A stretch of 28,313 bases of DNA from positions 1-28,313 of the IMG/VR virus record IMGVR_UViG_2721755712_000003. One strand, written 5' to 3'. Of the stretch, positions 2,494 to 28,313 are shown in pieces. The DNA is from a virus (Duplodnaviria > Heunggongvirae > Uroviricota > Caudoviricetes). The notes under the pieces were generated by a model. That model did no database searches. It was given only the letters and a program-made list of their open reading frames with translations, and was not told where the DNA came from. A program made the translations under genes and the position numbers. Within the stretch, counting starts at the first letter, position 1. The number at the start of each line of letters is the position of its first letter.

Positions 2494-2549
2494 ATAATCT
2501 GCCTCCTTTGGCTCTCTACTAGCTGACGTTTGTAACAAAACATTTTGAT

Positions 2550-2579
2550 TTTATCAGACTTTTTATTGATATGTGTCAA
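2550..2579 (-). promoter_or_regulatory. candidate sigma70 promoter for the zinc-ribbon operon (TTGACA, 18-nt spacer, GATAAA)
   Basis: Minus-strand TTGACA is the reverse complement of 2574-2579 and GATAAA of 2550-2555, about 50 nt upstream of the start codon. Pattern match only. Confidence 0.3.
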
Positions 2580-3001
2580 TTGATTAGCTGGTATAGAGTG
2601 AGACAGGATGCCTTATCGACCTTACTCTGGCAACTGATTGACGGGGGATTGCTCCCCCGTCGCGGTTTCCTTACTGCTTACACTGTAAGAACGCCGCAAA
2701 CTCCGCTCCCCAGAAACTCATCCGTATTTCACACAGCGAACCGTGCAGCATCCAGATGATGAGGATTGCCGTCACGCAGAACGTGATGGCCGTAAGCGAT
2801 TTTTGCGACATAGCACTTGCTCCTTTTCCGGAGAGGCGCTAACCTTTCACTTGTCAAGGTAATGCGGTTAGGGCCTCGGTTAAACAGATATGTTTTCCGG
2901 GGCCTTTCCACATCCGGCCTTCGGGTATTCCCTCCGACCATCAGCCGAAAGGCACCCGCACGTAATCTATCGCTTTTTTGTTACTCCGGCAATTCTGCCT
3001 G

Positions 3002-3262
3002 TTAATCCTGAGGTAAAGGCAAACTCATCTGATTGTTTCCCCTGTGTGAAGCTGGCAGCTCATGCCACGGGATACCTTCTGATGAGTGAACGCCGGAGGC
3101 GTGTTTCGATGTGAATTTATGGAAAGCTTCCAGTGTTGAGAAGCATACGCCGCATTCCAGATTGTTACACTGGTAATACTTTTGCCGCACGGTGTTTGAA
3201 TCATTTTCCGGACGACTGGTGCGGATACGGGCAGATGCGCCACAAAGCGGACAACGGAACAT
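3002..3262 (-). CDS. ogr: Ogr/Delta-type zinc-finger late-gene transcriptional activator
   Basis: 86 aa, MFRCPLCGASARIRTSR...YYQCNNLECGVCF with the C-x2-C...C-x4-C arrangement typical of P2 Ogr. GGGAGG SD before ATG at 3260-3262. Confidence 0.9.
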   Translation of the reverse strand: MFRCPLCGASARIRTSRPENDSNTVRQKYYQCNNLECGVCFSTLEAFHKFTSKHASGVHSSEGIPWHELPASHRGNNQMSLPLPQD

Positions 3263-4149
3263 AGCGACCTCCCTTAACGTGGTGCTGCCGCTATTCTAAG
3301 TTGCTCACTCTGTTTCCGCTATCCATTCCGGGATTTTTGCCTCAAGCTCAAGCTGCGTGGTAAAGCCGCTGTTATCAATGGTGTGCCCGGCTTTTGCAAT
3401 AATCCAGTCCTGATTATCAATCTCGCTTTTAAATCCTGTTACCGTGCCATGCATTTCGGGGTAGAGCTCTGCACGTCCACGCGCCAGCGTGATGGAGAAT
3501 GATGCGGCTCCGCGTTGTAGTTGCTGCCACTTTGCCGCCGCTGCGCGTCTTGCTGCCTGCTCGTTCTGATAAGTCTTGCGTAACACAAACACATTGCCTT
3601 CCGCGCCTTCCATATAATCACCTTCACGGCTGCTGCTTTTCTCCTTTTTGGGTTTTGGCGGTTTACGGCGTTTCACGCTGACTTTTTTCTTTTTCCCGTA
3701 ATTAAGATCAAGCCAGTAGGCGCGTACCCCCGTATACGCCTCGCGGTCAGCAATGCGGAACTGATGGCGATCGCCGCTGCTGCGTGTAATGGCGAACGAG
3801 GGCAACGGCTGGCCCTGTGCGTTCACGCCACCACCTGGCATGATGAATAACAGATTGCCGCTTTTTACCGTGGTGATTGCACCCAGCATTTCCGCCATGC
3901 GCGTAAGGAAGGACATGTCGCTTTCTTCGGTCTGGTCGGCGTGGTCGATTTCGATATCCATCAGCATTTCGCTGATTTGCGGTTTCAGACCATACCGATG
4001 AGCGATGGCGGATACCACACGCTCAACGGTCACATCATGCCAGGACACCTCACGTTTAACGTTAAATTCATCCCAAAAATCTGCGCTTCTGGCTGAAACA
4101 GTCAGCCTGTCCGGCGGTCCTTCGTGAGCGATTTCATCAACAATGTAAG

Positions 4150-5370
4150 TGTAGATTCAATTGGTCAACGCAACAGTTATGTGAAAACATGGGGTTGCGG
4201 AGGTTTTTTGAATGAGACGAACATTTACAGCAGAGGAAAAAGCCTCTGTTTTTGAACTATGGAAGAACGGAACAGGCTTCAGTGAAATAGCGAATATCCT
4301 GGGTTCAAAACCCGGAACGATCTTCACTATGTTAAGGGATACTGGCGGCATAAAACCCCATGAGCGTAAGCGGGCTGTAGCTCACCTGACACTGTCTGAG
4401 CGCGAGGAGATACGAGCTGGTTTGTCAGCCAAAATGAGCATTCGTGCGATAGCTACTGCGCTGAATCGCAGTCCTTCGACGATCTCACGTGAAGTTCAGC
4501 GTAATCGGGGCAGACGCTATTACAAAGCTGTTGATGCTAATAACCGAGCCAACAGAATGGCGAAAAGGCCAAAACCGTGCTTACTGGATCAAAATTTACC
4601 ATTGCGAAAGCTTGTTCTGGAAAAGCTGGAGATGAAATGGTCTCCAGAGCAAATATCAGGATGGTTAAGGCGAACAAAACCACGTCAAAAAACGCTGCGA
4701 ATATCACCTGAGACAATTTATAAAACGCTGTACTTTCGTAGCCGTGAAGCGCTACACCACCTGAATATACAGCATCTGCGACGGTCGCATAGCCTTCGCC
4801 ATGGCAGGCGTCATACCCGCAAAGGCGAAAGAGGTACGATTAACATAGTGAACGGAACACCAATTCACGAACGTTCCCGAAATATCGATAACAGACGCTC
4901 TCTGGGGCATTGGGAGGGCGATTTAGTCTCAGGTACAAAAAACTCTCATATAGCCACACTTGTAGACCGAAAATCACGTTATACGATCATCCTTAGACTC
5001 AGGGGCAAAGATTCTGTCTCAGTAAATCAGGCTCTTACCGACAAATTCCTGAGTTTACCGTCAGAACTCAGAAAATCACTGACATGGGACAGAGGAATGG
5101 AACTGGCCAGACATCTAGAATTTACTGTCAGCACCGGCGTTAAAGTTTACTTCTGCGATCCTCAGAGTCCTTGGCAGCGGGGAACAAATGAGAACACAAA
5201 TGGGCTAATTCGGCAGTACTTTCCTAAAAAGACATGTCTTGCCCAATATACTCAACATGAACTAGATCTGGTTGCTGCTCAGCTAAACAACAGACCGAGA
5301 AAGACACTGAAGTTCAAAACACCGAAAGAGATAATTGAAAGGAGTGTTGCATTGACAGATTGAATCTACA
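4150..5370 (+). mobile_element. IS30 insertion sequence, complete (1221 bp), flanked by 2-bp target duplication AG
   Basis: Left end TGTAGATTCAATTGGTCAACGCAAC at 4150; right end is its imperfect inverted copy (22 of 25 matches) ending at 5370. AG at 4148-4149 and 5371-5372. Length equals canonical IS30. Confidence 0.95.
4212..5363 (+). CDS. insI: IS30 transposase
   Basis: 383-aa ORF MRRTFTAEEKASVFELWKNGTGFSEIANILG... recognised as the E. coli IS30 transposase (HTH N-terminus, DDE core). Confidence 0.95.
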   Translation: MRRTFTAEEKASVFELWKNGTGFSEIANILGSKPGTIFTMLRDTGGIKPHERKRAVAHLTLSEREEIRAGLSAKMSIRAIATALNRSPSTISREVQRNRGRRYYKAVDANNRANRMAKRPKPCLLDQNLPLRKLVLEKLEMKWSPEQISGWLRRTKPRQKTLRISPETIYKTLYFRSREALHHLNIQHLRRSHSLRHGRRHTRKGERGTINIVNGTPIHERSRNIDNRRSLGHWEGDLVSGTKNSHIATLVDRKSRYTIILRLRGKDSVSVNQALTDKFLSLPSELRKSLTWDRGMELARHLEFTVSTGVKVYFCDPQSPWQRGTNENTNGLIRQYFPKKTCLAQYTQHELDLVAAQLNNRPRKTLKFKTPKEIIERSVALTD

Positions 5371-5794
5371 AGTGCCTTTTTCTGTCAGCGGTTCTCCCTT
5401 CCAGCCAATGAGAACCGTCAGGCGCGCGCCCCGTGGCGGTAGCTGCAACTGACCATCCGCATCATCCAGCGTGATGGTGAGCTGGTCCGCCTCAAATCCC
5501 CGGTTGTCGGTCAGTGACAGGCTCATCAGGCGCTCTGCCACGCCTGACAGCGTTTTACCCTCCGCGAGAATATCAAAATCCGGCATTTTTACGGGGTCTG
5601 TGCCCTGACTGAGCAATTGCATGGTGGTGTCGGTCATCTGCTCCCTCCCTGTGCGGCATGGTCGCATGTGCGTGCGGAGGGGGTTACTGCTTTTTGTTGT
5701 CGCCGTGGCGAGAGAACGGCGCAGGGGTGAGATTACGCGCGTGGTGGGTGATGATTGTTGCCGAATCATTTAACGGATACAAGGGGCTGAAGCT

Positions 5795-6979
5795 ATGAGT
5801 GAAACTCGTTTTCATGGTGCCCGTGTTACGGAAAATACCGACCTGGTAACAGCGATTAACGATGTTGATTCCAGCGTTATCGGTATCGTGGCAACGGCGG
5901 ATGATGCGGACGCGAAGCTGTTCCCGCTGAACAAGCCCACACTGCTGACCCGCGTCAATGACGTGCTGGGAAAATGCGGGACAACGGGGACGCTTTATCG
6001 TGCGCTTAAGGCCATCGCAGACCAGGTGAGTACAAAGGTGATCGTCGTTCGCGTGGCTGAACACAAAGAAGAAGACGGAAAAACGCAGGATCAACTGGTT
6101 ATCGGTGGTTCTGAATCTGACGGCAGCTATACGGGGATGTATGCGCTGCTTGTTGCAGAGCAGGATGAAAGCATCGGATACCGTCCGCGTATTCTGGCCG
6201 CGCCGGAGCTGGACACGGAGGCGGTAACAAAATCCCTGTGCGTGATTGCGGGTAAACTGCGCGCGTTTGTGTATGCCTCATGTCACGGCTGTAACACGAT
6301 GGCTGAGGCGATTACCTACCGCCAGAAATTCAACGAACGTGAGGTGATGCTCTTATGGCCGGACTTCATCGCCTACAACCCGAAAAGTGGCAAAAACGAA
6401 ACGTTCCCCGCGCCTGCCTATGCGTGCGGCCTTCGTGCGTACATTGACCATGAGCAGGGTTGGCACAAATCGCTGTCCAACGTTCCGGTTAAAAATGTGC
6501 TGGGGATGTCCAGGCATGTGTTCTGGTCGTTGCAGGCCGAAGACAGTGATGCCAACAGCCTCAACAACAAAGAAATCACGACCATTATTCGTCGCAACGG
6601 GTTCCGCTTCTGGGGCAACCGCACACCGGAAACGAACGCCTACATCTTTGAGGTGTATACCCGAACCGCACAGGTGCTGGCTGATTCAATTGCGGAAGCG
6701 CAGTTTGAAACCATCGATAGTCCACTGACGCCTGCGAACGTGAAGGATGTTATCAGTGCCATCAGGGCAAAACTGGATTCACTGGTGACTGCCGGGAAAC
6801 TGATTGGGGCGTCGTGCTGGTATGACGTGGTGGATAACAGCACCACGAATTTACGTCAGGGGCGTGTGCGTATTCGCTACAAATATACGCCCGTTCCTCC
6901 GCTGGAAGACATGGAGCTTTACCAGTCGTTTACTGATGAATTCTTTGGTCCCGCATTTGCGGTGCTGGGAGGTGCCTGA
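5795..6979 (+). CDS. FI: contractile tail sheath protein
   Basis: 394 aa, AAGGGG SD; conserved blocks FPLNKP, WPDF, GFRFWGNRT, YKYTPVPPLE matching P2 gpFI. On the opposite strand to the other late genes. Confidence 0.95.
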   Translation: MSETRFHGARVTENTDLVTAINDVDSSVIGIVATADDADAKLFPLNKPTLLTRVNDVLGKCGTTGTLYRALKAIADQVSTKVIVVRVAEHKEEDGKTQDQLVIGGSESDGSYTGMYALLVAEQDESIGYRPRILAAPELDTEAVTKSLCVIAGKLRAFVYASCHGCNTMAEAITYRQKFNEREVMLLWPDFIAYNPKSGKNETFPAPAYACGLRAYIDHEQGWHKSLSNVPVKNVLGMSRHVFWSLQAEDSDANSLNNKEITTIIRRNGFRFWGNRTPETNAYIFEVYTRTAQVLADSIAEAQFETIDSPLTPANVKDVISAIRAKLDSLVTAGKLIGASCWYDVVDNSTTNLRQGRVRIRYKYTPVPPLEDMELYQSFTDEFFGPAFAVLGGA

Positions 6980-7491
6980 TGGCTGTACCAAAACATCTTC
7001 GCTTTTTTACGCTGTTTGTGGATGGTGAAAACGAAGTGGGTAAGGTGACGTCCGTCACCCTGCCTAAACTGACGCGCAAAACCGACAGCTACCGGGGTGG
7101 TGGCATGATGGGTGCGGTAAGTATTGATCTCGGTCTGGACGACTCCGCGCTTGATGCGAGCTTTGTCATGGGGGGCGCAGTTCGTGAGCTGTTCCTTAAG
7201 TATGGCGGCACGATTGACGGCACGCTACTGCGTTTTGCGGGTGAATACTACACCGATGCAGAAAGCGACCTGTATGAAGTCGAAATGCGCGGACGCGTGA
7301 CGGAAATTGATATGGGGGAAGCCAAACAGGGCGAAGCCACATCACACACTTACGCCATTAAAAACACCTACTACAAGCTGAGTGTTAACGATCGTCCGTT
7401 GTGGGAGATTGACCTGCTGAACTTCATTTACCGGAAGGACGGCAAGGACATTGTGCCCGATCGCATCCGTTCCGCGCTTGGGCTTGGCTGA
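6979..7491 (+). CDS. FII: tail tube protein
   Basis: 170 aa; ATG overlaps the FI stop (TGATG), the usual FI-FII position and size. Confidence 0.9.
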   Translation: MAVPKHLRFFTLFVDGENEVGKVTSVTLPKLTRKTDSYRGGGMMGAVSIDLGLDDSALDASFVMGGAVRELFLKYGGTIDGTLLRFAGEYYTDAESDLYEVEMRGRVTEIDMGEAKQGEATSHTYAIKNTYYKLSVNDRPLWEIDLLNFIYRKDGKDIVPDRIRSALGLG

Positions 7492-7545
7492 TAAGTAATA
7501 TGCAGGCGGCGCAGTGCGTCGCCTCTGACTGAAAGGAGTTTCCTG

Positions 7546-7911
7546 ATGAAAGAGACGAAAAACATCGATACCGAAAACACGGTAGTTGCTGACACTGTGA
7601 AAGAAACCAGTGAGCGTGGCGTAAAACTTACCCAACCAATTGAGCGAGGCGGCGAAAAAATCACGTATGTGGAGATCACCGGGGCTATTGAGCAGGCTGG
7701 ATCTCTGCGAGATTTGTCGCTGTCTGATGTGCTGAATCTGAAAGCGGAATCCATGTTTACGCTGCTGTCACGAGTGACATCACCGCGACTGGATGAAGTG
7801 ACGATCAAAAAAATGGCATCCCGTGACTTTATTCAGTTATGTGTGGTTGCCGTAAATTTTTTGAGCGGTGCGGACTCTGGCGGGAAGAACGAACAGGCGA
7901 CGGAAGCCTGA
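7546..7911 (+). CDS. E: tail assembly chaperone gpE (zero-frame product)
   Basis: 121 aa, AAGGAG SD 7 nt upstream; lies between tube and tape-measure genes and contains the slippery heptamer near its 3' end. Confidence 0.8.
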   Translation: MKETKNIDTENTVVADTVKETSERGVKLTQPIERGGEKITYVEITGAIEQAGSLRDLSLSDVLNLKAESMFTLLSRVTSPRLDEVTIKKMASRDFIQLCVVAVNFLSGADSGGKNEQATEA

Positions 7912-8075
7912 TCACGGTTGTGTGCTTTGAGCACATAGAAGACTTTGTGGCAGATATTGCCGTTATTTTTAACTGGTCGCCCGCCGAAATCTTCATGATG
8001 ACGCCCGGCGAAGTGGTTAGCTGGCGTGAGCGGGCGGCACTTCGCAGCGGGAATGCAGACAATGAAGACTCTTGA
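7546..8075 (+). CDS. gpE+E' chaperone fusion made by programmed -1 frameshift at 7857-7863
   Basis: Zero-frame codons AAT TTT TTG (N F L). A -1 slip on T TTT TTG reads TTT GAG CGG..., which is exactly ORF 7839..8075 (FFERCGLW...), ending with TGA at 8073-8075. Confidence 0.75.
7857..7863 (+). promoter_or_regulatory. T-TTT-TTG slippery heptamer for the E/E' -1 frameshift
   Basis: Read directly; frame relationship verified by coordinate arithmetic (E in frame 1, E' in frame 0). Confidence 0.75.
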
Positions 8076-10869
8076 TATCCGGGTCGCTTTCAGCGCCGTT
8101 GACAGGCTGACCCAGCCTGCCGAAAACGCCCGCCGCCTGATGGGGCAGTTTGGTGACTCCATCCAGCGAACGCAGGGGGCGATCAAAAATCTCGAGCGTC
8201 AGGCGCGTTCATTTGAGCGCGCCCGCGACGCTGTCAGTAAAGCGGATGCGGGTATCGTGAAAGCACGACGCCAGCTTAACGCCCTTAATCAGTTACAACG
8301 CACGGGTACAGTGCTCAGCGAAAAACAACAAAAGCTGATGCAGCAGTTAAGCACCCGGCTTGAACGCCTGAATGAATCGCGCACGCGGGAAATTCAGAAA
8401 ATGCGGGAGCTTGGCGGAGAGCTGAAACGCCACGGCATTTCCCTGACAGGCAGCGATAACACCATCCAGCAGGCCATCAGACGCACCGAACAGTACAACA
8501 ATCAGCTTGAACGCGAACGGCAGGCGCTTGCGCGTGTAACGCGGGCGCGTGAGCGGTATTCGCGCGCGCAGGAAACAGCGGGAAAACTGAAAACAGGTGG
8601 TGCACTGGCAATTGGTGCGGCAGCGGCGGGCGGCTATGCTGCCGGGCGTTTTTTGCAGCCTGCGATCGGGTTCGGGAAAGAGATGTCCCGCGTTCAGGCA
8701 CTGACGCGAATCGACCAGAACAGCCCGCAGTTTAAGGCGCTGCGTGAGCAGGCGTTAAAACTTGGCTCTGAAACGCAGTTCACCGCAGGCGATGCCGCCA
8801 GTGGGCAGGCATTTCTGGCAATGGCTGGCTTCACACCGCAGGCCATTCAGGCTGCGCTTCCCGGCGTGCTGAGCATGGCAACGGCTGGCGGTATGGACCT
8901 TGGCGAGACGGCAGATATTGGCTCAAATATCCTGACGCAGTTCGGCCTCTCCGCTGACCAGATGGACCGGGTCGGTGACACGCTTACAGCAGTGTTTACC
9001 CGTACTAACACTGACCTTCGCGCACTGGGCGAAACCATGAAATATGCAGGTCCGGTGGCGGGTAAGCTGGGAATATCGCTGGAGCAGGCCGCAGCGATGG
9101 CGGGCGTGCTGGCGAATATGGGTATCAGAGGGAGTGATGCCGGGACGGCAATGCGTGCCAGCCTGGCTCGTCTGGCATCACCGCCAAAGGCGGCAGCAGA
9201 AGCGCTGAAAGAGCTGGGTGTGTCCGTCTCTGATGCGAACGGCAAAATGCGCCCGATGGAAGATGTGCTGGCCGACCTTTATAAAGCCACCCGTAAATAC
9301 GGGGAAGTTGACCGGGTATCGTTCTTTAAGGACATTGCCGGGGAAGAGGCTTTCACGTCGTTTATGGCTCTCGTTGATGCGGCGGGTGACGGCTCCCTGC
9401 CCAAACTGAGAAAAGAACTTGAGGGCGCACGCGGTGAGGCTGAACGCACGGCAAAGGTTATGGCCAATAACCTTGATGGCGACCTGAAATCACTCGGCAG
9501 TGCATGGGAAGGGCTGCGTATCCGCATTGCAGATCTGATTGATGGTCCGCTGCGTTCTGTCACGCAGTGGCTCACGCGGGTGGTCTCAAAGGTGACGGCG
9601 CTGGCACAGGCCCATCCGGTACTGACGCGCCAGTTACTGATAGCAGGCGGTGCGCTGCTGGCAATGACTGCAACGGTTGGCTCGTTGTCGCTGGTTATTG
9701 GAGTGCTTCACGGGAAGCTGGCCACGTTGCGTCTTGGTTTTTCTCTCCTGACCGGATCAATGAATGCTGTCAGGCTCCTGCCAGCACTATGGGGAATGGT
9801 GACGGGTTCCGTTTCGTTACTGGGGGGCGCTATCGGGGCGCTGTTCAGCCCGGTCGGATTGATTGCTGCTGCGTTTGTGGCTGCGGCAGTTCTCATCTGG
9901 AAATACTGGGAACCCATCAAGGCGTTTTATGCCGGGGTGTTCAGCGGGATTATGGAGCGGCTGGCCCCGTTACGCGAAACCTTTGAACGGTTTGGTCCTG
10001 TTTTTGACGCAATCGGAAGCGGGATAAGTCAGGTGTTTAACTGGTTTAAATCGTTGCTGTCACCGATGGAGTCCAGCAAGGAAACGCTGGATAAATGTAC
10101 CAGTGCTGGCGAGATATTCGGTAACGTTCTTGGCGGTGCGTTACAGCTTGTTCTGACGCCCGCAAAAATGTTGCTGGATACGCTGGCGTGGATACTTGAA
10201 AAACTCGGTGTGCTTCCGGATGAAGCGGAAAGGGCGAGAAAGAAAATCGAAGACGCACAGCGTGCGGCCATTCTTCAGGACAAGGTTGCTCTGTTTCAGG
10301 GAGACATTGCGAAAATCAATCCGCCGAAGTCTGCGGAAAATGGCAATGGCACCGGAGGTGATAAACCCAAAGACAATAAACCGCTCACAGACAGCAATAC
10401 CGGTACGCTACGCAGACTCAGCAAAATTGCTGATAACACAGGTAAGCTGGTTGATGAGACGAAAAAACGTATTGGCCCCGGCGATATTGTCTTTAAGAAC
10501 CTGCCCCGCGCACTTGCCGTTCGTGGGGAGTGGCAGGAGCGGAAGATTGTGCAGGTCAGTAAGCCTGCCCCCGCAATTAATATCACACCCGTGGTCCCGG
10601 CTCCGCTGCCTCCGGCGCTGGTCCCTGTTGTTGCGGCCAGCTCCCGCCCGGTGGCGGAGGCCATACGATCTCCAGTGGCATCAGTTCCTGTAACTTCCCG
10701 TAACCGGGAGCCTGTTGCCTCCGGATTTGGTGGTGAAATTCATGTTCATCTGCATAACGTTGTTACGCAGAATCCCCGCGAACTGGCGAAACTGGTCGGT
10801 GAAATGGTCAGGGCAGAAATGGAACGGCGCGCCCGTGCCGGGCGTGGCAGTTTTTACGATAAAGATTGA
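8053..10869 (+). CDS. T: tail tape measure protein
   Basis: About 938 aa, coiled-coil N-terminus, central hydrophobic block, Ala/Gly-rich segments, Pro-rich C-terminus. Start taken at ATG 8053 (or 8062), overlapping the E' end. Confidence 0.9.
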   Translation: MQTMKTLDIRVAFSAVDRLTQPAENARRLMGQFGDSIQRTQGAIKNLERQARSFERARDAVSKADAGIVKARRQLNALNQLQRTGTVLSEKQQKLMQQLSTRLERLNESRTREIQKMRELGGELKRHGISLTGSDNTIQQAIRRTEQYNNQLERERQALARVTRARERYSRAQETAGKLKTGGALAIGAAAAGGYAAGRFLQPAIGFGKEMSRVQALTRIDQNSPQFKALREQALKLGSETQFTAGDAASGQAFLAMAGFTPQAIQAALPGVLSMATAGGMDLGETADIGSNILTQFGLSADQMDRVGDTLTAVFTRTNTDLRALGETMKYAGPVAGKLGISLEQAAAMAGVLANMGIRGSDAGTAMRASLARLASPPKAAAEALKELGVSVSDANGKMRPMEDVLADLYKATRKYGEVDRVSFFKDIAGEEAFTSFMALVDAAGDGSLPKLRKELEGARGEAERTAKVMANNLDGDLKSLGSAWEGLRIRIADLIDGPLRSVTQWLTRVVSKVTALAQAHPVLTRQLLIAGGALLAMTATVGSLSLVIGVLHGKLATLRLGFSLLTGSMNAVRLLPALWGMVTGSVSLLGGAIGALFSPVGLIAAAFVAAAVLIWKYWEPIKAFYAGVFSGIMERLAPLRETFERFGPVFDAIGSGISQVFNWFKSLLSPMESSKETLDKCTSAGEIFGNVLGGALQLVLTPAKMLLDTLAWILEKLGVLPDEAERARKKIEDAQRAAILQDKVALFQGDIAKINPPKSAENGNGTGGDKPKDNKPLTDSNTGTLRRLSKIADNTGKLVDETKKRIGPGDIVFKNLPRALAVRGEWQERKIVQVSKPAPAINITPVVPAPLPPALVPVVAASSRPVAEAIRSPVASVPVTSRNREPVASGFGGEIHVHLHNVVTQNPRELAKLVGEMVRAEMERRARAGRGSFYDKD

Positions 10870-10881
10870 GGAGTCATGGCC

Positions 10882-12465: not shown

Positions 12466-12470
12466 AAACG

Positions 12471-20542: not shown

Positions 20543-20544
20543 GT

Positions 20545-22194: not shown

Positions 22195-22266
22195 TGCGGC
22201 AATCCTCTTGTTACAGATGTGCGAAGGCCTCCTGCCGCAAGGTGCAGGAAAGGCCCGGAACAGGAA

Positions 22267-22497: not shown

Positions 22498-22674
22498 GGT
22501 GTGGCCTCTTTGGTTGTAAGTTTTGAAAACTCACCATCCAGAGCTGCGAAACTGTGGGTGGCGAGACGTACGGGGTTCGCAGTACCGGCAACCAAAGAAC
22601 CCGGCCCGACCGAAGTCGGCCCCGTACGCCCCGCCATAATTCTGACGCGAAAAAAACGTGGCAATACAGTACGC

Positions 22675-22702
22675 ACAAAAAAACCGCTGGCGCGGTTGTG
22701 CG
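22675..22702 (-). terminator. intrinsic terminator (hairpin followed by T7 on the minus strand)
   Basis: Minus-strand RNA reads CGCACAACCGCGCCAGCGGUUUUUUUGUGCG; the T-run is the complement of 22675-22681. Lies downstream of the SPFH gene. Confidence 0.55.
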
Positions 22703-22864
22703 CTTTGGTTGTCAGCAGGCTGCGAAACCCGGCACCCGTTTTATGAGGTGCAGCGAAAATGTAACCTGACTGATTGCGGCATGGCAAGCGGTTTTTTTGT
22801 GAGAACGGCATACTAAAAAATCCTGATACTGCTCCGGCCAGCGGTTTGCACTGGCCGGGTGTCA

Positions 22865-23695
22865 TTACTTCACGGGAACGAACGGAACAGCGGTGTTACT
22901 GGTCATGTATTGCGGCAGCGTGCCGTTCCATTTGTTGATTGCTTCCAGCTCCATAACGCCGGGATTCTGGCGCAGAGCTTCGCCGCGTAAACGAATGGCG
23001 TCGGCTTCAGCCTGGGCTTTTGTGCGAATGGCATCGGCCTGTCCGGCAGCTTCTGCGCGCAACATGTTGGCTTCTGCTTCGCGTTGCTTGACTTCCTGTT
23101 CGCGTTGCAGGGTTTTCTGGTTTGCCGTGACTTTGGCGTTAATGCTGTCGATAACGGTTGGCGGATATTCCGGTTTACCGACATAAGAGAGGCTCATGAC
23201 CTGAATACCGATGGGGGTCATCTCTTCCTGAATATCTTTAAGTGCTGAATCCAGCAGTTCAGACTTACCACCGTCGATAAACTTATCGGTGGTCATTTTG
23301 CTGGCCAGTCGGTTGAGTGCATCGGCGATCTTCTGGCGCAGGTCAGTGTCGGTAATGTCGTCCACGCCTTTGCGGTAGGTCTGAAACACCGTGGTAACTT
23401 TGGATGGATCAACTTTGTAGGCCACGCCGATGTGATAGCCGATGGTTGTGCCGTCACTCATCTGGAAGTTGAACGGCTCATCGTAACTCTTCATTTGTTT
23501 GAAGGTCGGGAAGATGTAAACCTCTGTATTCCAGCCTGTCCAGTAGCGGCCAACGCCAACCACTTCACCGACGCCTTTGTCGTCGCCCAGTTTGTTGACT
23601 TTGATGCCCACATTACCTGGCTCAACGCGATCGCAACCAACCAGCAGGATGGCGGCAAAAAGCGGGAGAATCTGAAAGAGTCTGAATTTCTTCAT
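22865..23695 (-). CDS. SPFH/band-7 (stomatin/prohibitin-like) lipoprotein
   Basis: 276 aa, lipobox LLVGC, SPFH-like core followed by an Ala/Gln/Glu-rich coiled coil (QREQEVKQREAEANMLRAEAAGQADAIRTKAQAEADAIRLRGEALRQ). Start overlaps the upstream gene stop (ATGA). Confidence 0.75.
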   Translation of the reverse strand: MKKFRLFQILPLFAAILLVGCDRVEPGNVGIKVNKLGDDKGVGEVVGVGRYWTGWNTEVYIFPTFKQMKSYDEPFNFQMSDGTTIGYHIGVAYKVDPSKVTTVFQTYRKGVDDITDTDLRQKIADALNRLASKMTTDKFIDGGKSELLDSALKDIQEEMTPIGIQVMSLSYVGKPEYPPTVIDSINAKVTANQKTLQREQEVKQREAEANMLRAEAAGQADAIRTKAQAEADAIRLRGEALRQNPGVMELEAINKWNGTLPQYMTSNTAVPFVPVK

Positions 23696-23895
23696 TGTTT
23701 GATTTCCTTGATGTACTTACTGAAAAGGCGAACAACGCCTGCCGGGTACAGCATGGCAATGAAAATTCCCAGCAATACCAGGAAGGAGCTGTCTGATGAA
23801 ATCATTCGGGGGAGTAGTCCTGCATACAGAATGAGAGAGACGAGGACGCATACCAGCGCCCACATGTATGCGCGAAACCAGGTCTTTTTGTTCAT
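23692..23895 (-). CDS. small two-helix membrane protein, partner of the SPFH gene
   Basis: 67 aa with two hydrophobic helices; translationally coupled to the SPFH gene. Confidence 0.55.
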   Translation of the reverse strand: MNKKTWFRAYMWALVCVLVSLILYAGLLPRMISSDSSFLVLLGIFIAMLYPAGVVRLFSKYIKEIKQ

Positions 23896-23906
23896 ATCGC
23901 GGTCCT

Positions 23907-24206
23907 TTACTGGTTAAGGAAAAAATCGAAAACGTTGTCGATGCGTTGCAGCGGCTCCTGCTGCATTGCTTCCGGCGTTTCTGATTCACCTGGTGACTCC
24001 AGCGTCGCGCAAAAATCCTTGATTTCATGATGGAGCGTCAGACGAATGGCAGGAGCCATGGTTCTGGCGTGCTCCAGCTCATCCAGCAGTGCCAGCACGG
24101 CAGATGGCGAGAGCATTGCGCGAAACGCCAGTAATTTTTGATGCGTTGCCATTCGTTGCAGGTCAGTCGCCAGTTCGCGTAATTCCTGGTGGTTGATGGC
24201 GCTCAT
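23907..24206 (-). CDS. hypothetical protein, 99 aa
   Basis: ORF start overlaps the upstream gene stop by 4 nt. Confidence 0.45.
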   Translation of the reverse strand: MSAINHQELRELATDLQRMATHQKLLAFRAMLSPSAVLALLDELEHARTMAPAIRLTLHHEIKDFCATLESPGESETPEAMQQEPLQRIDNVFDFFLNQ

Positions 24207-24469
24207 GCTCTGGCTTCCTTCAGTAGCAGGTTAAACATGTGAGTAAGTGGATTGCTACACCCGAACGGCATCGGGTTTACGTGGTAAGAAGCCTGGCCTC
24301 CTGCTTTGCGAGCGCGACCACCTGTGCTGCGGTTTGTTCTGATGACTAAGCCGCCGCGCCAGAGTCGGCGTAACTCAGCATTGATGGCTGTGGTTGGGGT
24401 ATTCAGTGCTGCGGCGATTTCTCCGCCGCTACAACCCGGATGGGTAGCGATGTAGTCCAGAATGGTCAT
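24203..24469 (-). CDS. small winged-helix-like DNA-binding protein, 88 aa
   Basis: MTILDYIATHPGCSGGEIAAALNTPTTAINAELRRLWRGGLVIR resembles an HTH/winged-helix fold; coupled to flanking genes. Confidence 0.5.
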   Translation of the reverse strand: MTILDYIATHPGCSGGEIAAALNTPTTAINAELRRLWRGGLVIRTNRSTGGRARKAGGQASYHVNPMPFGCSNPLTHMFNLLLKEARA

Positions 24470-24669
24470 CTGCGTGACTCCTGTACCTGTCGGATAAGGT
24501 TCACCCGCACCACATTCGTGGCGCAGAAGTAAGTGCCGTCAGTGAGATAGATGTGATGTGCATCCTTTTCCGAACGATGTTTGTCGATAGTGGTAATCAG
24601 TCGTTCGTCGACCTCGTATTCGCGGTCTCTGGAGGTGAAGCGAACGACAGGAAAATGCTTAATTGCCAT
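24466..24669 (-). CDS. hypothetical protein, 67 aa
   Basis: ATG 24667-24669 overlaps the upstream stop (TAATG). Confidence 0.45.
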   Translation of the reverse strand: MAIKHFPVVRFTSRDREYEVDERLITTIDKHRSEKDAHHIYLTDGTYFCATNVVRVNLIRQVQESRR

Positions 24670-24932
24670 TACACCCTCTTGGCTTTATGTCTGTATTTGA
24701 GCTTTTCTATTTCTTCTTTTTGTTCTTTTAATGTTCTTATGGCTGTGAAAACATTAAAGCCCATAAAATGTGCTCTGTTCGCTAATGTAATACTGGCACC
24801 TTTGTTAGCTATATCATCTTCAATATCAGTGAAATACTGACTGATTTCTTTTAGTGCGGCGCAAAGCTTTGCGAGATCTCGCCCCCTGTCAAAATATGCA
24901 TCCTTCAGTATTTTTTGATTTGTCCTGAGCAT
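24669..24932 (-). CDS. hypothetical AT-rich cargo protein, about 87 aa
   Basis: Internal ATG at 24930-24932 has a GAGGT SD; the longer ORF from 24986 lacks one. Distinctly AT-rich. Confidence 0.45.
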   Translation of the reverse strand: MLRTNQKILKDAYFDRGRDLAKLCAALKEISQYFTDIEDDIANKGASITLANRAHFMGFNVFTAIRTLKEQKEEIEKLKYRHKAKRV

Positions 24933-25021
24933 GCTAACCTCGTGTTTATATATATGGATACCTCCGCGAGTGCGGATTGTTTTCATGTTTTCTTATTTAA
25001 TCGTGTGTTTTATTTGTGCTG

Positions 25022-25135
25022 TTATTCTTCAGTGAAAAAACGCTCAATCTTTTTTACTGAATGAATAATTCGCATAATCCCAATAGCGCAGGCCACCGAA
25101 ATAATCAGAACAAGCCATGAGATAAATATACTCAT
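25022..25135 (-). CDS. 37-aa hydrophobic peptide MSIFISWLVLIISVACAIGIMRIIHSVKKIERFFTEE
   Basis: Translated by hand; ATG overlaps the upstream stop (ATGA). Single predicted TM helix. Below the ORF-track size cutoff. Confidence 0.4.
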   Translation of the reverse strand: MSIFISWLVLIISVACAIGIMRIIHSVKKIERFFTEE

Positions 25136-25374
25136 GCGATATTCCCCAGCTTATACGGTTCAATATGTTCCCCGCATTCTGCGGCACAGATCAGCTCGGA
25201 AAGTTCGTTAAGTGCATCCAGATCATCAGCGTAAAAAGCCACGTCATACAGACTTCGGATTGCTCTGGTCAATGAGTCACGGGCCGCACGTTCAGCATGA
25301 GCGCCTGATGCACTTAAGCGAAAATAAAAACGCTCAAGTGCTTTGTTAATGAGAGTTTTATATTCTTTGCCCAT
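25132..25374 (-). CDS. hypothetical protein, about 80 aa
   Basis: ATG 25372-25374 with AAGGG SD; the ORF-track start at 25377 is GTG. Confidence 0.45.
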   Translation of the reverse strand: MGKEYKTLINKALERFYFRLSASGAHAERAARDSLTRAIRSLYDVAFYADDLDALNELSELICAAECGEHIEPYKLGNIA

Positions 25375-25385
25375 CACAACGCCCT

Positions 25386-25673
25386 TTAATCTGCTTTCTG
25401 TATTTCAGCTTCTGAATCCATACAAATAATTTCGATATAGGGTTCATCGCCATTAACCTGGCGTGCCTTTTCAGCTTCGCTAATGATTTCTCGTACGGTC
25501 TGGTACGGAAGTTCCACAAGCAGCCGTGTGCCGTTCAGATAAATGTAAGTGGCTTCGGCGGCTCCGTTTTTACCCGCCGGAGTCACTCCATCAATAGCGG
25601 ATGCGCGTAATAACAGTTCACCGCGAAAATCAATAAAACGGATAAATACACCTTGTGCATGCTCTTTGGTCAT
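25386..25673 (-). CDS. hypothetical early protein, about 95 aa
   Basis: ATG 25671-25673 with AGGTG SD, 10 nt after the upstream stop; the longer ORF from 25787 would overlap the upstream gene. Confidence 0.45.
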   Translation of the reverse strand: MTKEHAQGVFIRFIDFRGELLLRASAIDGVTPAGKNGAAEATYIYLNGTRLLVELPYQTVREIISEAEKARQVNGDEPYIEIICMDSEAEIQKAD

Positions 25674-25683
25674 AAAGCACCTG

Positions 25684-26025
25684 TTATAAATCAGCCTGTT
25701 TAATAAAACTTTGCCCGCGAAGCAGACGATCAACCGTGCGAAGTGCTTCGTATAATGTGAAATCCTGCCCGAACTGATTGTCGCCACTGCTTAGAGCAAA
25801 AATGCGGTTTCCGGTAAACGGATTGCGTGGGCATTTGTGGATCACGATTCCAGCTTTCTCAATCAGCCAGGCATGCTCGCCGATTTGTTTTACTGGGTAG
25901 CCATCCGGCGTTGCGTGTGTATCACTCAGGCTGTAGCGGATGTTGCTGCGTGATGCACTGGTAGCAAAACGGTTAGCGTGGCGTTCTGCACCATTGCGAA
26001 AGCGTGAATTACGTTGCTGTTTCAT
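25684..26025 (-). CDS. hypothetical early protein, 113 aa
   Basis: ORF directly preceded by a coupled small ORF. Confidence 0.45.
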   Translation of the reverse strand: MKQQRNSRFRNGAERHANRFATSASRSNIRYSLSDTHATPDGYPVKQIGEHAWLIEKAGIVIHKCPRNPFTGNRIFALSSGDNQFGQDFTLYEALRTVDRLLRGQSFIKQADL

Positions 26026-26026
26026 G

Positions 26027-26134
26027 TTAAAGACTCTGTACAGATTTAATTATTCCGGCATAGAGGCCGAACTCAAAATATTTGCGATTAAATCGTATCG
26101 CATTGTTTTCACGTTTTGCGGACTGCTGGTTCAT
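26027..26134 (-). CDS. small ORF, 35 aa (MNQQSAKRENNAIRFNRKYFEFGLYAGIIKSVQSL)
   Basis: Strong GGAGG SD 8 nt before ATG 26132-26134; stop 1 nt before the next start. A further 35-39 aa hydrophobic ORF lies at 26131-26238/26250. Confidence 0.35.
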   Translation of the reverse strand: MNQQSAKRENNAIRFNRKYFEFGLYAGIIKSVQSL

Positions 26135-26277
26135 TTTCGTTTGCCTCCGCACATGAGAATTGCGCCGCTTAAGAGGTAACCGAAGTTAATTGATAGTATT
26201 ACAATTAACATAAGGTCCAATTTGTCCATGCCACACATAATTACCCTCATTGCAGTAGTTGTGGGTTGTCAGGTTTC

Positions 26278-26484
26278 TCACCCGATAAACCAGATAACAA
26301 ACGCTATAAACATCGCCCCAATAGCTGCCGGGAAAAGTCCTTTGGTATAAGCGGCGATATATTCAATGCTGAGTTCAATAAAGCGTTCTTCATGTCCCGT
26401 TAACTTGCGAAACAAATAGATCTCTATTACGCCTATCTCAATAAAAACAAGGGTCAGAATGGCGCTGATGATATGGCTGGTCAT
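26278..26484 (-). CDS. small membrane protein, 68 aa, downstream of cox
   Basis: Two hydrophobic helices; weak SD. Confidence 0.45.
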   Translation of the reverse strand: MTSHIISAILTLVFIEIGVIEIYLFRKLTGHEERFIELSIEYIAAYTKGLFPAAIGAMFIAFVIWFIG

Positions 26485-26490
26485 TTATGA

Positions 26491-26778
26491 CTAAAGTCCC
26501 AGCCACAACAACCATGCGTCGCGGCGTTCTTTCGGTTGCTCAAAAAACGCTTTGCGCATGCCTTCGTTAAATGCTGGCAGATATACCCAGTTTTCTGATG
26601 CACGCGTCTTCACTGAACCTGGTTTCACAAAGTCAATCGTTGGTAACTTTGCAGCGTCAATCATGGTTCTGACGGTTGATTCTTTGCGACCAATCATCTT
26701 GGCAAATAGTTGATATGGCACCGCTTCAAGTGGATATGGTGCTACCTGAATGAACCCCTCAAGCTCTGATTCGCTCAT
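26491..26778 (-). CDS. cox: Cox-like excisionase / lytic-switch repressor
   Basis: ...PYQLFAKMIGRKESTVRTMIDAAKLPTIDF...ENWVYLPAFNEGMRKAF...RDAWLLWLGL matches P2 Cox as remembered (...PYQEFAKLIGKSTGAVRRMIDKGKLPVIDM...YWVYLPAWNNGLKLAY...RDGWLMWLGL). Confidence 0.9.
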   Translation of the reverse strand: MSESELEGFIQVAPYPLEAVPYQLFAKMIGRKESTVRTMIDAAKLPTIDFVKPGSVKTRASENWVYLPAFNEGMRKAFFEQPKERRDAWLLWLGL

Positions 26779-26891
26779 TGTGGTAATCTCCCTAATTCGT
26801 TCGAATGGCTCAAAATGGCTTATATCGGCTTATTTGAGTGTTTTTATGTTTGTGCCCGATGTGGCATGTTGCGATGGAGGATATGCCCGAT
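26779..26891. promoter_or_regulatory. cox/C divergent immunity switch region with phased direct repeats (candidate operators)
   Basis: GGCT at 26807, 26817 and 26827 (exact 10-bp phasing; AATGGCT twice); TGCCCGAT-N-TGGCAT at 26853-26867 and 26884-26898 (14 of 15 identical), the second overlapping the C start codon. Confidence 0.55.
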
Positions 26892-27212
26892 ATGGCATCT
26901 TTGTCAAGCATGGGTGAAAAATTTCGCCTGATTCGTGAAGCAGAAGGTATGACCCGCCAGGAGTTTGCGGATTGTGTTGGGCTGCCTTATGGGACGGTAA
27001 CTAACTATGAGGTGAGGGGGAAGCAAGTAACAGAGGGTGCCTTACTTAAGGTTACGAAACACCCTAAATTTAAGAAGTATGCTTATTGGTTATTAACAGA
27101 TGAAACGATGCCGGAGGTCGGGCAAATTTCTCCGGCTCTCTCTCTTGATGGTTCCTGCAATTCGGAGGGAGATCGCGTTTCAACCGAAACAATCCAAAAA
27201 TTATCCCGCTGA
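26892..27212 (+). CDS. C: immunity repressor C (HTH)
   Basis: ...CVGLPYGTVTNYE...KHPKFKKYAYWLLTDETMPEVGQISPALS resembles P2 C as remembered (...GVPYGTLSYYE...QTPQFTKYTLWFMTNQIAPESGQIAPALA). Start chosen at ATG 26892; the longer ORF from 26838 is less likely. Confidence 0.8.
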   Translation: MASLSSMGEKFRLIREAEGMTRQEFADCVGLPYGTVTNYEVRGKQVTEGALLKVTKHPKFKKYAYWLLTDETMPEVGQISPALSLDGSCNSEGDRVSTETIQKLSR

Positions 27213-27308
27213 GGCCAGAAAACTGGTTAGACCTGCTTTTTGTCTGGTCTGATTATTGCTGGAAAGAGGCTGGAGAAATTGTAGAGCGGTTCATTGGAGG
27301 GCTTCGTA

Positions 27309-28313
27309 ATGTCGATTAAGAAGCTCGAAGATGGTCGTTATTTGCTGGACATCAGGCCGAACGGACGCAAGGGAAAGCGCGTGCGTAAGGTATTTGACAA
27401 AAAATCGGTAGCGGTGGCCACTGAACGCTACATCATGGCGAACGCTGAAAAGCGGGAATATATACAGGGCTACCGTGATCGTCGAACGCTAAATGATTTG
27501 CTTGAGTTGTGGTGGATGTATCACGGCCAGCACAGGCGTAAGGCGGAAGAAGACCGAAAACAACTGCGCAACATAATCAATGAGCTTGGCGCTGATATGC
27601 AGGCTGTGGATCTTGATAAGCTGAAAATTATCGCGTGGCGTTCTCAAAAGATAGCTGAAGGATTGAAACCGTCATCTGCTAACAGGTACATGAATCGGTT
27701 ATCCGGAATGTTTACCGTGCTGAAAAAAATAGGTCTTTGGGATGCAGAACATCCAGTAAGGGGAATTTCTATTCTTTATGTATCTCCACGAGAAATGGCG
27801 TTCCTGTCACAGAAGGAAGTGGCGCTATTGCTCGATACACTGGAGGGCGACTACTGGCGTGTTGCGCTTTTGTGTTTAAGCACAGGGGCGCGCTGGAGTG
27901 AAGCTTGTAAGCTTCGTGGTGAACAGATAGTTCATAACCGTGTAACGTTTCTTGAAACCAAAAATGGCCGGAAGAGAACAGTGCCAATTTCGCAGGCAGT
28001 TTGTGAGGCGATCAAAACCAGAGAAACAGGCGGCTTGTTTGAGGTGAAGTACCGGGAATTCTGCCTGGCGCTGAAAAGAGTTAAGCCCGATTTACCAAAA
28101 GGCCAGGCTGCACATGTGCTGCGGCATACGTTCGCCAGCCATTTTGTGATGAACGGAGGAAACATTATTGCGCTTCAGAAGATTCTTGGTCACGCAACCA
28201 TTCAGCAAACAATGGCATATGCGCATTTTGCACCGGATTACCTGCAGGATGCGGTGGCCCTTAATCCGCTGAAAGGTGGCGTAAGTGTCCACGCAGTGTC
28301 CACGGGGGATTAA
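27309..28313 (+). CDS. int: tyrosine integrase, P2 Int family
   Basis: MSIKKLEDGRYLLDIRPNGRKGKRVRKVFDKKS...LSTGARWSEA...HVLRHTFASHF...AYAHFAPDYLQDA closely parallels P2 Int including the R...HxxR...Y catalytic motifs. GGAGGG SD; stop TAA at 28311-28313. Confidence 0.95.
   Translation: MSIKKLEDGRYLLDIRPNGRKGKRVRKVFDKKSVAVATERYIMANAEKREYIQGYRDRRTLNDLLELWWMYHGQHRRKAEEDRKQLRNIINELGADMQAVDLDKLKIIAWRSQKIAEGLKPSSANRYMNRLSGMFTVLKKIGLWDAEHPVRGISILYVSPREMAFLSQKEVALLLDTLEGDYWRVALLCLSTGARWSEACKLRGEQIVHNRVTFLETKNGRKRTVPISQAVCEAIKTRETGGLFEVKYREFCLALKRVKPDLPKGQAAHVLRHTFASHFVMNGGNIIALQKILGHATIQQTMAYAHFAPDYLQDAVALNPLKGGVSVHAVSTGD

Follow-up and report, generated by a model that had tools for sequence, protein, structure and literature searches.

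The closest described relatives of the element analysed here are the phages P88, P88_4B11 and PhiR44_2 and Citrobacter PhiSM, with which it has its hok, ogr, lysis, early-operon and SPFH genes in common. P88 is a plaque-forming phage. The Xuanwuvirus relatives use the same att site at the start of pdxB, and the SD and TTG start are supplied by the phage, as described for PhiSM. In contrast to these relatives, our element lacks O, Q, cos, the defence hotspot, parMR, G/Tfa, I, H (bar a fragment) and parts of N, P, A and J, and has an IS30 in D. It resembles E. coli cryptic prophages (for example, the K-12 remnants), which are likewise inactivated by deletions and ISs, vertically inherited, and keep the repressor and some accessory genes. 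R-type pyocins and P2-derived tailocins, like our element, have contractile-tail and lysis genes of P2 ancestry without head genes, although tailocin loci normally lack integrase and immunity, both of which are kept here. The concept of the 'domesticated defective prophage' is reportedly that of Bobay, Touchon and Rocha (2014).

The closest phages to the window (the whole 28,313-nucleotide stretch of DNA that was analysed) are P88, P88_4B11 and PhiR44_2, at 96% identity and 84–85% query coverage. The aligned blocks are without gaps, collinear with all three phages and 96–97% identical in nucleotide sequence (94–98% over the P88 relatives with PhiSM included), and identity and collinearity with P88, the type phage of Xuanwuvirus, hold genome-wide. 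The gene order is also that of the genus: ogr and D leftwards; FI, FII, E, E′, T and U rightwards; fibre, baseplate, lysis and head genes leftwards. The divergent int–C/cox switch and ogr are full length, and A is represented by codons 1–430 only. As judged from its gene content, the element is a defective P88-like prophage (Xuanwuvirus, Peduoviridae, P2 family) for which virion production would be impossible; a P2-family prophage with an intact lysogeny and early region, unable to make virions, is what the first-pass annotation of this DNA had proposed. The host is an enterotoxigenic E. coli (ETEC) belonging to the same lineage as the L2 reference E1649 (ST4, O6). In its immunity region (C/cox/int) the element follows PhiR44_2/P88_4B11 rather than P88, and an acetyltransferase moron sits in place of the invertase/alternative-fibre module of P88.

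The prophage is inserted at the start codon/first codons of pdxB, at the flk–pdxB junction. A 20-bp sequence from the flk/pdxB junction of K-12 occurs twice, at window positions 1098–1117 and at 33273–33292 of an identical copy free of the IS (L001), in which the right att core is seen 183 bp past the window end. Homology to PhiR44_2 begins at window position 1094. Position 2494, previously taken as the left boundary, thus falls within the prophage, which begins at ~1118. The left end, lysis cassette, early operon and lysogeny switch are composed as follows.

1098..1117, no strand: attL core AAAATCCTTGTTGATGAAAA, codons 2–8 of native pdxB; true left prophage end
1246..2156, minus: VasI/TagO-like secreted-protein gene, pseudogene (1-bp deletion between 1903 and 1902, frameshift after codon 85)
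2161..2493, minus: zinc-ribbon protein (cargo), intact; full-length match (110 aa) to the PhiR44_2 homologue
2671..2811, minus: Hok/Gef-family toxin gene, intact; 100% over 46 aa to PhiR44_2, RefSeq annotation of L001
3002..3262, minus: ogr late-gene activator, intact; 98.8% over 86 aa, annotated as ogr/Delta-like zinc finger
15327..16594, minus: lysis cassette of Rz1/LysC, Rz (DUF2570), M15 endolysin and holin, ORFs intact; 99–100% full-length matches
21829..26484, minus: early operon of small overlapping ORFs, all intact; full-length matches to P88 and/or PhiR44_2, Pfam, start/stop overlaps
22270–22497, minus: derepression protein of the early operon
22554–22641, minus: C4 antisense RNA; Rfam RF01695, 87.1 bits, full length, above the gathering score
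22677–22751, minus: isrK-like RNA; Rfam RF01394, 65.9 bits, full length, above the gathering score
22865–23695, minus: SPFH protein of the early operon, with a 67-aa partner
26491..26778, minus: cox, intact; 98.9% over 95 aa
26874..27212, plus: immunity repressor C, ORF intact, with the derived substitution S74L (T at 27094)
27309..28313, plus: integrase, intact; 99.4% over 334 aa, its stop codon being the window end

The claimed intactness of int, C, cox, ogr, holin, endolysin, Rz/Rz1 and the early operon is borne out: they contain no stops, and amino-acid identity to viable relatives is 97–100%. Further members of the early operon are a MarR-like wHTH, DUF4754 and DUF4761. The C4 and isrK-like RNAs (22554..22751) lie directly upstream of the derepression-protein gene.

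We found a nearly identical complete prophage at the same flk–pdxB site in E. coli FDAARGOS_1077 (NZ_CP068155; hereafter L008). It has the same insertion site, flanks, VasI-like frameshift and acetyltransferase moron as our element, but neither the four deletions described below nor the IS30, and its C has Ser74; its own A gene carries an in-frame 339-bp deletion. Comparison with this copy set the deletion endpoints to the base. The four deletions, J1–J4, remove 2164, 1272, 1015 and 5718 bp, respectively, ~10.2 kb together. J1 (window 12016–12018) shortened the acetyltransferase gene by its final 78 bp and took the gene for tail fibre assembly along with the C-terminus of the fibre, and J2 (12509–12514) took the fibre N-terminus, I and the final 29 codons of J. 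J3 (~19267–19271; L008 25994–27008) took codons 1–9 of N, the whole of O and the O–P intergenic region except 19 bp; the late promoter of the lysis cassette was probably lost with it in the window. J4 (20539–20546; L008 28287–34004) took codons 419–583 of P, Q, the cos region, the DUF3800 gene, parR/parM and A from codon 431 to its end. Microhomology is perfect over 2–6 bp at J1–J3 (TTATCT at J2); at J4 it is perfect over ~2 bp and imperfect over 8 of 9. The genes cut by these deletions are listed below.

11551..12090, plus: LbetaH (hexapeptide) acetyltransferase moron, C-terminus lost; Pfam Hexapep, J1 inside
12016..12513, minus: internal 499-bp fragment of tail fibre gene H; 100% to L008 17460–17958
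12510..13316, minus: J′, codons 1–269 of 298; ends at J2
18239..19266, minus: N′, major capsid, without start and first 9 codons; tblastn, residues 10–350 only
19289..20546, plus: P′, large terminase, codons 1–418 of 583; 19 bp of upstream region remain
20533..21822, minus: A′, replication endonuclease, codons 1–430 of 940; tblastn, P88 A residues 1–430, 97.4%

The H fragment is 80% identical to residues 219–391 of PhiR44_2 H. Residues 1–156 of the acetyltransferase match the 181-aa L008 protein; in place of its final 25 residues, the reading frame runs on into antisense fibre DNA, giving a tail unrelated to the L008 protein. Of the gene set of a functional prophage, O, Q, the cos region, H (except the 499 bp), Tfa and I are therefore missing, N, P, A and J are truncated, and D is split. 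Deletions in O/N, I/H, G/cargo and P-Q-cos-A had been recognized in the first-pass annotation and correspond to J3, J2, J1 and J4, respectively. Their claimed independence finds no support in these data, in which the four deletions never occur apart. Among 5,426 complete E. coli genomes, one and the same set of 9 carries all four. Nothing was found to support the view that they are assembly or scaffolding artefacts, a circumstance that had been named as fatal to the original claim; the junctions are 100% identical in these nine independently assembled genomes, with short microhomology at each breakpoint, and we dismiss this explanation as having next to no chance of being right.

A further lesion had been seen in the orientation of the tail block. 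P88, PhiR44_2 and P88_4B11, however, likewise have FI-FII-E-E′-T-U on the strand opposite D and the baseplate genes; it is only in comparison with P2 itself, where FI through D lie on one strand, that the block counts as inverted. The 'tail-block inversion' is thus the native layout. The surviving structural genes are the following.

5795..11370, plus: FI (sheath), FII (tube), E, E′, T (tape measure) and U, all intact; 98–100% full-length matches, genus-native orientation
13320..15340, minus: W, V, S and R (baseplate, tail completion), intact; 98–100% full-length matches
16597..18193, minus: X, L (head completion) and M (small terminase), intact; 97–99% full-length matches

FI, FII, E, T, U, W, V, S, R, X, L and M are as intact as int, C and cox, and 17 structural and lysis genes are still intact in all; intactness is thus not a marker of 'useful' genes here. 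With sheath, tube, tape measure, U, V, W, R, S, X and the lysis cassette as intact ORFs, together with ogr, it could be thought that tail and lysis genes of P2 type are maintained to make R-type bacteriocin particles. We regard such co-option as extremely improbable. The sheath and tube are not accompanied by a complete set of baseplate, fibre and chaperone genes: unlike in tailocins, the fibre H, its chaperone (Tfa) and gpI are deleted, gpJ is truncated and D is interrupted by the IS30 here. In addition, the late O/P control region is missing, and the sister strain 2011EL-1370-2 has lost W through M and has a frameshifted tube gene.

The IS30 in D was confirmed and placed at codon 89/90. It has the features of IS30 (1221 bp, 26-bp terminal inverted repeats, a 383-aa DDE transposase and a 2–3-bp target duplication), and the identical element is named IS30 in RefSeq. 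The repeats, as read from the sequence, are TGTAGATTCAAT(T/C)(G/T)GTCAA(C/T)GCAACA, and the 2-bp target duplication, AG, is at 4148–4149 and 5371–5372.

3305..4149, minus: gene D distal part, codons 90–369; tblastn, PhiR44_2 D 89–369, 98.9%, no stops
4150..5370, plus: IS30, 1221 bp, transposase 4212–5363; 26-bp inverted repeats, AG target duplication
5371..5637, minus: gene D proximal part, codons 1–89; tblastn, residues 1–90, 97.8%

In the IS-free L001, D is open over 369 codons, and this IS30 insertion is absent from all nine genomes having the deletions. The IS30 hot spot in gene D is among the points most worth following up.

We compared the substitutions that separate the element from its complete copy. 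Five SNPs in ~27 kb of shared DNA distinguish it from L008, and the chromosomal flanks differ by none in 6.6 kb. Four of the SNPs are nonsynonymous and one is synonymous, these five substitutions being all that is available for gauging purifying selection. By this comparison the decay is very young, with no selection signal visible: five SNPs represent too little time for selection to leave one.

The remnant is restricted to one clone. Its nine carriers include E1649 and the O6:H16 strain 2011EL-1370-2; the four examined in detail are 0–2 SNPs from the window in shared DNA, with identical chromosomal flanks. By names and records, the isolates span roughly 1997 to 2011. Erosion continues in some of them. 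2011EL-1370-2 has a 5.6-kb deletion from W through M, in which the whole lysis cassette is gone, as well as the FII frameshift; 99-3165 has an additional 1.4-kb deletion; and the acetyltransferase gene is split by an IS1 in E1649 and, given a match of the same length (24,554 bp), presumably also in E1624.

The first-pass annotation read the element as domesticated, that is, the host keeps immunity, integrase, lysis and early accessory genes for immunity, exclusion or conversion, and the virion genes are free to decay. The description on which this was built, a defective prophage with an intact lysogeny and early region, stands. Consistent with domestication, int, C, cox, ogr and the early operon with the SPFH pair and C4/isrK RNAs are intact, and the remnant is unchanged across the isolates. 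As one weak point in its favour, none of the nine disruptive events in the lineage touches lysogeny or early genes: all fall outside the attL–ogr and early/immunity/int blocks (P ~0.03, a joint, post hoc value assuming uniform placement). The keeping of cargo, however, was not supported. Domesticated defective prophages are defined by persistence across diverged hosts and by purifying selection, whereas our element is a few SNPs old, mostly nonsynonymous ones, and occurs in a single clone (the 9 of 5,426 genomes) rather than across diverged host lineages, and its structural survivors are equally intact. Cargo is not kept preferentially over virion genes. The claim of retained cargo was right only in part. 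The zinc-ribbon protein (with a weak, sub-threshold Pfam Zn_Ribbon_1 match of 24.5 bits against a cut-off of 25), hok and the early operon are intact. The cos-proximal Q–A hotspot, the main defence hotspot of the P2 family, is deleted along with the DUF3800 gene (PADLOC defence candidate PDC-M04A) and parMR. The acetyltransferase is truncated or IS1-split. The VasI-like gene (Pfam VasI, E=5.6e-25) has a frameshift when aligned with its homologues in L013 and PhiR44_2, which are intact at 297 aa, and the same frameshift is present in the complete L008. The lysis cassette is gone in 2011EL-1370-2. Altogether we consider domestication unlikely.

The element is probably best explained as a young cryptic prophage in recent, continuing decay, which is neutral or mildly selected and not demonstrably domesticated. 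A complete prophage, inherited vertically at the pdxB site, would have lost the ~10.2 kb through four illegitimate, short-microhomology deletions, and the IS30 would have been gained afterwards, in the strain of the window, at the gene D hot spot. These lesions removed the C-terminus of A and probably ori; cos, the portal and the C-terminus of the terminase ATPase; the scaffold, the start of the capsid and the divergent late control region between O and P; and the tail fibre with its chaperone, along with gpI and the final part of gpJ. In combination they would leave the element incapable of replication, DNA packaging and assembly of heads or adsorbing tails. The remaining genes would look intact because there was too little time for point mutations, not because of selection. 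The immunity/early end probably survives also since loss of the repressor with the early genes remaining would be harmful, and the hok toxin locus may penalize loss of the left end. A weak point is the avoidance of the attL–ogr and early/immunity/int blocks by the nine events: such event-free blocks are what selection to keep them would produce (P ~0.03), although counter-selection against repressor loss explains them as well as cargo benefit does. The SPFH pair, immunity or hok, among others, may possibly be of use to the host.

Intact regulatory genes beside wrecked structural genes are by themselves no proof of domestication, since the same pattern arises from a handful of large deletions of recent date. 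The locus is a well-resolved case of the rapid dismantling of a P2-family prophage in a pathogenic clone, of little importance beyond book-keeping. As an ancestor-like complete copy and further-eroded descendants exist, the order and rates of events are measurable in draft ETEC genomes.

Four deletions within the time of ~5 SNPs are fast, which argues against purely neutral loss. It might be that S74L in C weakened the repressor and made the prophage leaky and costly, that the cells to survive were those in which replication, packaging, the late control region and the fibres had been deleted, and that the deletions are adaptive suppression instead of neutral decay. S74L is derived, and its exact 61-mer occurs in the nine degraded genomes alone, the 166 other genomes with this repressor type all differing; furthermore, J4 (the A C-terminus and cos) and J3 (O/P control) remove the functions most dangerous upon derepression. 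If this were true, the lineage would document, in nature, how suppressor deletions hitting replication/cos, late control and fibres became fixed while only a few SNPs arose. However, the nine genomes are one clone, so the co-occurrence of S74L and the deletions counts as a single event, and the chance that one among five SNPs falls in C is ~6%. The deletion in A alone would also block the late genes, making three more selected hits unnecessary. We therefore find selected disarmament quite improbable and favour the recent decay described above. The clone-specific substitution S74L in the repressor is itself also among the points most worth following up.

The best matches among phage records (megablast) were P88, P88_4B11 and PhiR44_2, at 96% identity over 84–85% of the query; all three are Peduoviridae, and P88 and P88_4B11 belong to the genus Xuanwuvirus. 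Among complete E. coli genomes, the flk–pdxB region of F5656C1 and of eight other genomes equals the window at 100% identity, bar one insertion. Comparison with K-12, where flk adjoins pdxB, revealed a 20-bp duplication, AAAATCCTTGTTGATGAAAA, and placed the ends of the prophage as follows.

Ends of the prophage (window positions)
1–996, minus strand: flk, the left chromosomal end
1098–1117: first copy of the att core AAAATCCTTGTTGATGAAAA
27309–28313: phage integrase, whose stop codon is the window end
183 bp past the window end: second copy of the att core

Since homology to PhiR44_2 starts at 1094, next to the first att copy, the prophage begins at about 1118 and not at 2494, as the first-pass annotation had it, a difference of 1.4 kb. 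The low-GC genes at 1246–2493 are phage cargo; PhiR44_2 and P88_4B11 carry the same genes at the same end. The att core corresponds to pdxB codons 2–8 (window 1098–1117; 33237–33300 of L001, an IS30-free E. coli locus with an identical remnant that covers attR), and the native pdxB promoter and GTG start remain at attL after integration. Integration took place directly after the pdxB start codon, and phage DNA at attR gives an AAGGAG Shine–Dalgarno sequence and an in-frame TTG, from which pdxB would carry a 7-residue N-terminal extension. This phage-supplied start was previously described in PhiSM (PMC6456863); RefSeq annotates the pdxB start differently among lysogens. We considered, and dropped, the idea that pdxB expression forces retention of the whole C–int unit, because in PhiSM the predicted promoter, Shine–Dalgarno sequence and TTG all lie within ~60 bp of attR (PMC6456863), so that at most the extreme end of the prophage is constrained.

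E. coli FDAARGOS_1077 (NZ_CP068155; locus L008) carries a complete copy of the prophage at the same site, with 5 SNPs in ~27 kb of shared DNA and no difference in 6.6 kb of chromosomal flank. From this copy we took the base-level endpoints of four deletions (J1–J4).

Deletions and insertion in the window, relative to the complete copy
12016–12018 (J1): 2164 bp lost, with the 3' end of the acetyltransferase moron, the fibre assembly gene and the fibre C-terminus; GTA microhomology
12509–12514 (J2): 1272 bp lost, with the fibre N-terminus, gpI and the last 29 codons of gpJ; TTATCT microhomology
~19270 (J3): 1015 bp lost, with the first 9 codons of N, the whole of O and the O–P intergenic region bar 19 bp; TA microhomology
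20539–20546 (J4): 5718 bp lost, with P codons 419–583, Q, the cos region, DUF3800, parR, parM and A from codon 431 to the end; imperfect 8–9 bp homology
4150–5370 (IS30): 1221 bp, 26-bp inverted repeats, AG duplication; D split at codon 89/90

The deletions and the IS30 reported by the first-pass annotation were thus all borne out against the complete copy, and the deletions are not artefacts, as J1–J4 are identical across nine independent complete assemblies. One lesion had been missed, a frameshift in a VasI/TagO-like cargo gene. One of the six lesions claimed, an inversion of the tail block, is a normal feature of the genus. P88, PhiR44_2 and P88_4B11 too have FI-FII-E-E'-T-U on one strand and D, ogr and the baseplate/head genes on the other, and their alignments with the window show gap-free collinearity. 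Only by comparison with P2 itself, whose genes from FI to D run along a single strand, does the block count as inverted. P88 is mitomycin-inducible and plaque-forming, with a burst of ~65 (PMC5285337), and its relative PhiSM is viable too (PMC6456863). The orientation of the FI–U block is a genus trait.

Twelve other complete E. coli genomes have an IS30 at the identical nucleotide of D, likewise with the AG duplication and in the orientation seen here (window 4148–5372; 9101–10321 and 9101–11634 of L012 and L013, two such E. coli loci), and the target contains …CAACAATGTAAGTGCCTTTTTC…. One of the 12 cases is a P88-like prophage at tRNA-Leu/pgsA of the O114:H49 strain 90-9280, and another is a prophage at flk–pdxB of a cattle strain. 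The flanks of these other insertions are 1.3–3.5% divergent from the window, whereas the flanks in the window match the IS-free complete copy at 99.94–99.96%, which argues that the insertions were independent and indicates that the D site is a hot spot for IS30. We rejected D as an extra lesion in IS-free strains, where RefSeq gives a 267-aa gene and a small partial ORF: this is an annotation artefact, and on translation the full 369-codon frame is open (L001 9305–10414, equal to window 3305–4149 plus 5371–5637).

Without the A C-terminus, and probably without an origin, the element should be unable to replicate, and the loss of cos, Q and the terminase C-terminus would prevent packaging with or without a helper phage. 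The absence of O and the start of N predicts that no heads are made; with H, Tfa and I gone, J truncated and D split, neither adsorbing tails nor tailocins would be expected. Excision may still be possible, since int, cox and both att sites (attL and attR) remain intact, but the excised circle would be lost.

Genes were scored by tblastn with PhiR44_2 and P88 proteins. Full-length, stop-free matches of 97–100% were obtained for ogr, hok, holin, endolysin, Rz/Rz1, cox, C and int, for the early-operon genes, and equally for the structural survivors FI, FII, E, E', T, U, W, V, S, R, X, L and M. The first-pass annotation was right that the integrase, immunity, lysis and early genes are intact; everything outside the deletions is intact, however, and intactness is no guide to 'useful' versus 'useless' genes. 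The capsid protein N (window 18242–19264, minus strand) is only 94% identical to N of PhiR44_2, where the neighbouring proteins are 98–100% identical, which suggests that head-module genes underwent mosaic exchange. At 22554–22751 (minus strand) Rfam gave full-length matches to C4 antisense RNA (87 bits) and an isrK-like RNA (66 bits); both lie directly upstream of the gene for a 76-aa 'derepression protein' and within a 224-codon ORF (22191–22865) that has a Pfam Phage_ASH match and is a partial pseudogene in RefSeq. The arrangement resembles the P1-like RNA-controlled antirepressor module, and this region may be such a module rather than protein-coding. No LexA box was found near the derepression-protein gene; the sole CTGT-N8-ACAG in the window, at 1264, is consistent with chance.

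By analogy with P2, the lysis genes would be transcribed from the O promoter. In this prophage the genes from O to G run as a single minus-strand block with few gaps, S and V overlapping, and J3 removes the O-promoter control region, so the intact lysis genes are probably silent. Intergenic regions contained no strict P2-type late promoter motif (TGT-N12-ACA). The sequence TTGTTGT-N11/12-AGAAC(G/A)G precedes both FI (window 5694–5720, plus strand) and P (L008 26942–26968, plus strand) and is a candidate for the Ogr-dependent late promoter motif in P88-like phages; only the complete prophage has the copy at P, which J3 deleted from the window. For the O and V operons, on the minus strand, motif searches gave no convincing late promoter site.

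The proposal that the prophage retains its cargo held only in part. The accessory genes kept are hok and those for a Zn-ribbon protein and for an SPFH/Band-7 protein plus its small partner; none of them corresponds to a known defence system. The VasI/TagO-like gene (window 1246–2156, minus strand; Pfam VasI) is a pseudogene with a 1-bp deletion, common to all L2 genomes examined and to the otherwise complete FDAARGOS_1077 copy. It encodes a signal peptide and repeated C-x-RLSCYD motifs, and RefSeq annotates its halves as separate genes; at 1246–1812 an ORF listing gives an 84-aa ORF (1246–1500), the translation is open for ~220 codons and RefSeq has a 188-aa CDS. Of the acetyltransferase, residues 1–156 are kept; J1 took the last 25, among them the conserved stretch that follows the final LbetaH coil. 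An IS1 also splits the gene in L2_E1649, the ETEC reference, and E1624 probably shares it, its match length (24,554 bp) being equal to that of E1649. J4 takes out the entire gpQ–gpA interval, which in P2-like phages is the defence hotspot (Rousset et al. 2022, PMC9122126). The complete copy has there a DUF3800 gene (L008 30436–31242), adjoining parR/parM, with a match to the PADLOC candidate PDC-M04A (E=2.6e-35). This deleted gene gave the sole PADLOC defence match; scans of the retained VasI-like, Zn-ribbon, acetyltransferase, SPFH-pair and early ORFs gave no credible one.

Queries spanning J1+J2, J3 and J4 all hit one and the same set of 9 genomes among 5,426 complete E. coli genomes: 99-3165, F5656C1, 2011EL-1370-2 (O6:H16), LR882973, E66, E70, E143, E272 and E1624. 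LR882973 is L2_E1649, the reference of ETEC lineage L2 (ST4, O6, CS2+CS3+CS21, LT+STh; PMC8085198). None of the nine carries the IS30. Two have lost more: in 2011EL-1370-2 another 5.6 kb is gone (window 13060–18614), with W, V, S, R, X, L, M, the whole lysis cassette and part of N, and the tube gene is frameshifted; 99-3165 lacks another 1.4 kb (L'-M-N', the primes denoting partial genes) and has two SNPs. Four of the five SNPs between window and complete copy are nonsynonymous (VasI-like pseudogene, D R114W, E T15A, C S74L), and at least three arose in the degraded lineage.

These data are better explained by continuing decay of an ordinary defective prophage, which lost its function very recently and in a single clone, than by domestication. 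The first-pass annotation, whose observations were largely right, had proposed that the host keeps the element for its cargo, which the evidence available does not support. Domestication is usually recognized by persistence across diverged hosts, purifying selection on the kept genes and preferential retention of cargo; these were either not seen here or left with too few substitutions for a test. All nine disruptive events (four founding and two later deletions, two IS insertions and a frameshift) do fall outside the attL–ogr and early/immunity/int blocks, as selective retention would predict (P about 0.03 under uniform placement, with the block partition chosen post hoc). However, one of the nine, the IS30, was driven by a hot spot, and avoidance of the repressor region is expected anyway where the remaining early genes are harmful when derepressed.

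The repressor substitution S74L (window 27094, codon 74) raises the alternative that C first became leaky and that the deletions were then selected because they disarmed the prophage. Leu at codon 74 is derived; PhiR44_2, P88_4B11 and FDAARGOS_1077 have Ser there. S74L is confined to the nine degraded genomes, the surrounding 61-mer being different in 166 of 166 other genomes with this repressor type. Its presence in nine genomes is a single clonal event, and we regard selected disarmament as unlikely. Recent decay in one clone remains the preferred reading. The A gene of the 'complete' FDAARGOS_1077 prophage (L008 32829–35288) lacks ~339 bp, in frame, close to its 3' end, which leaves an ORF of 820 codons versus 940 in P88, and this copy may itself be impaired.
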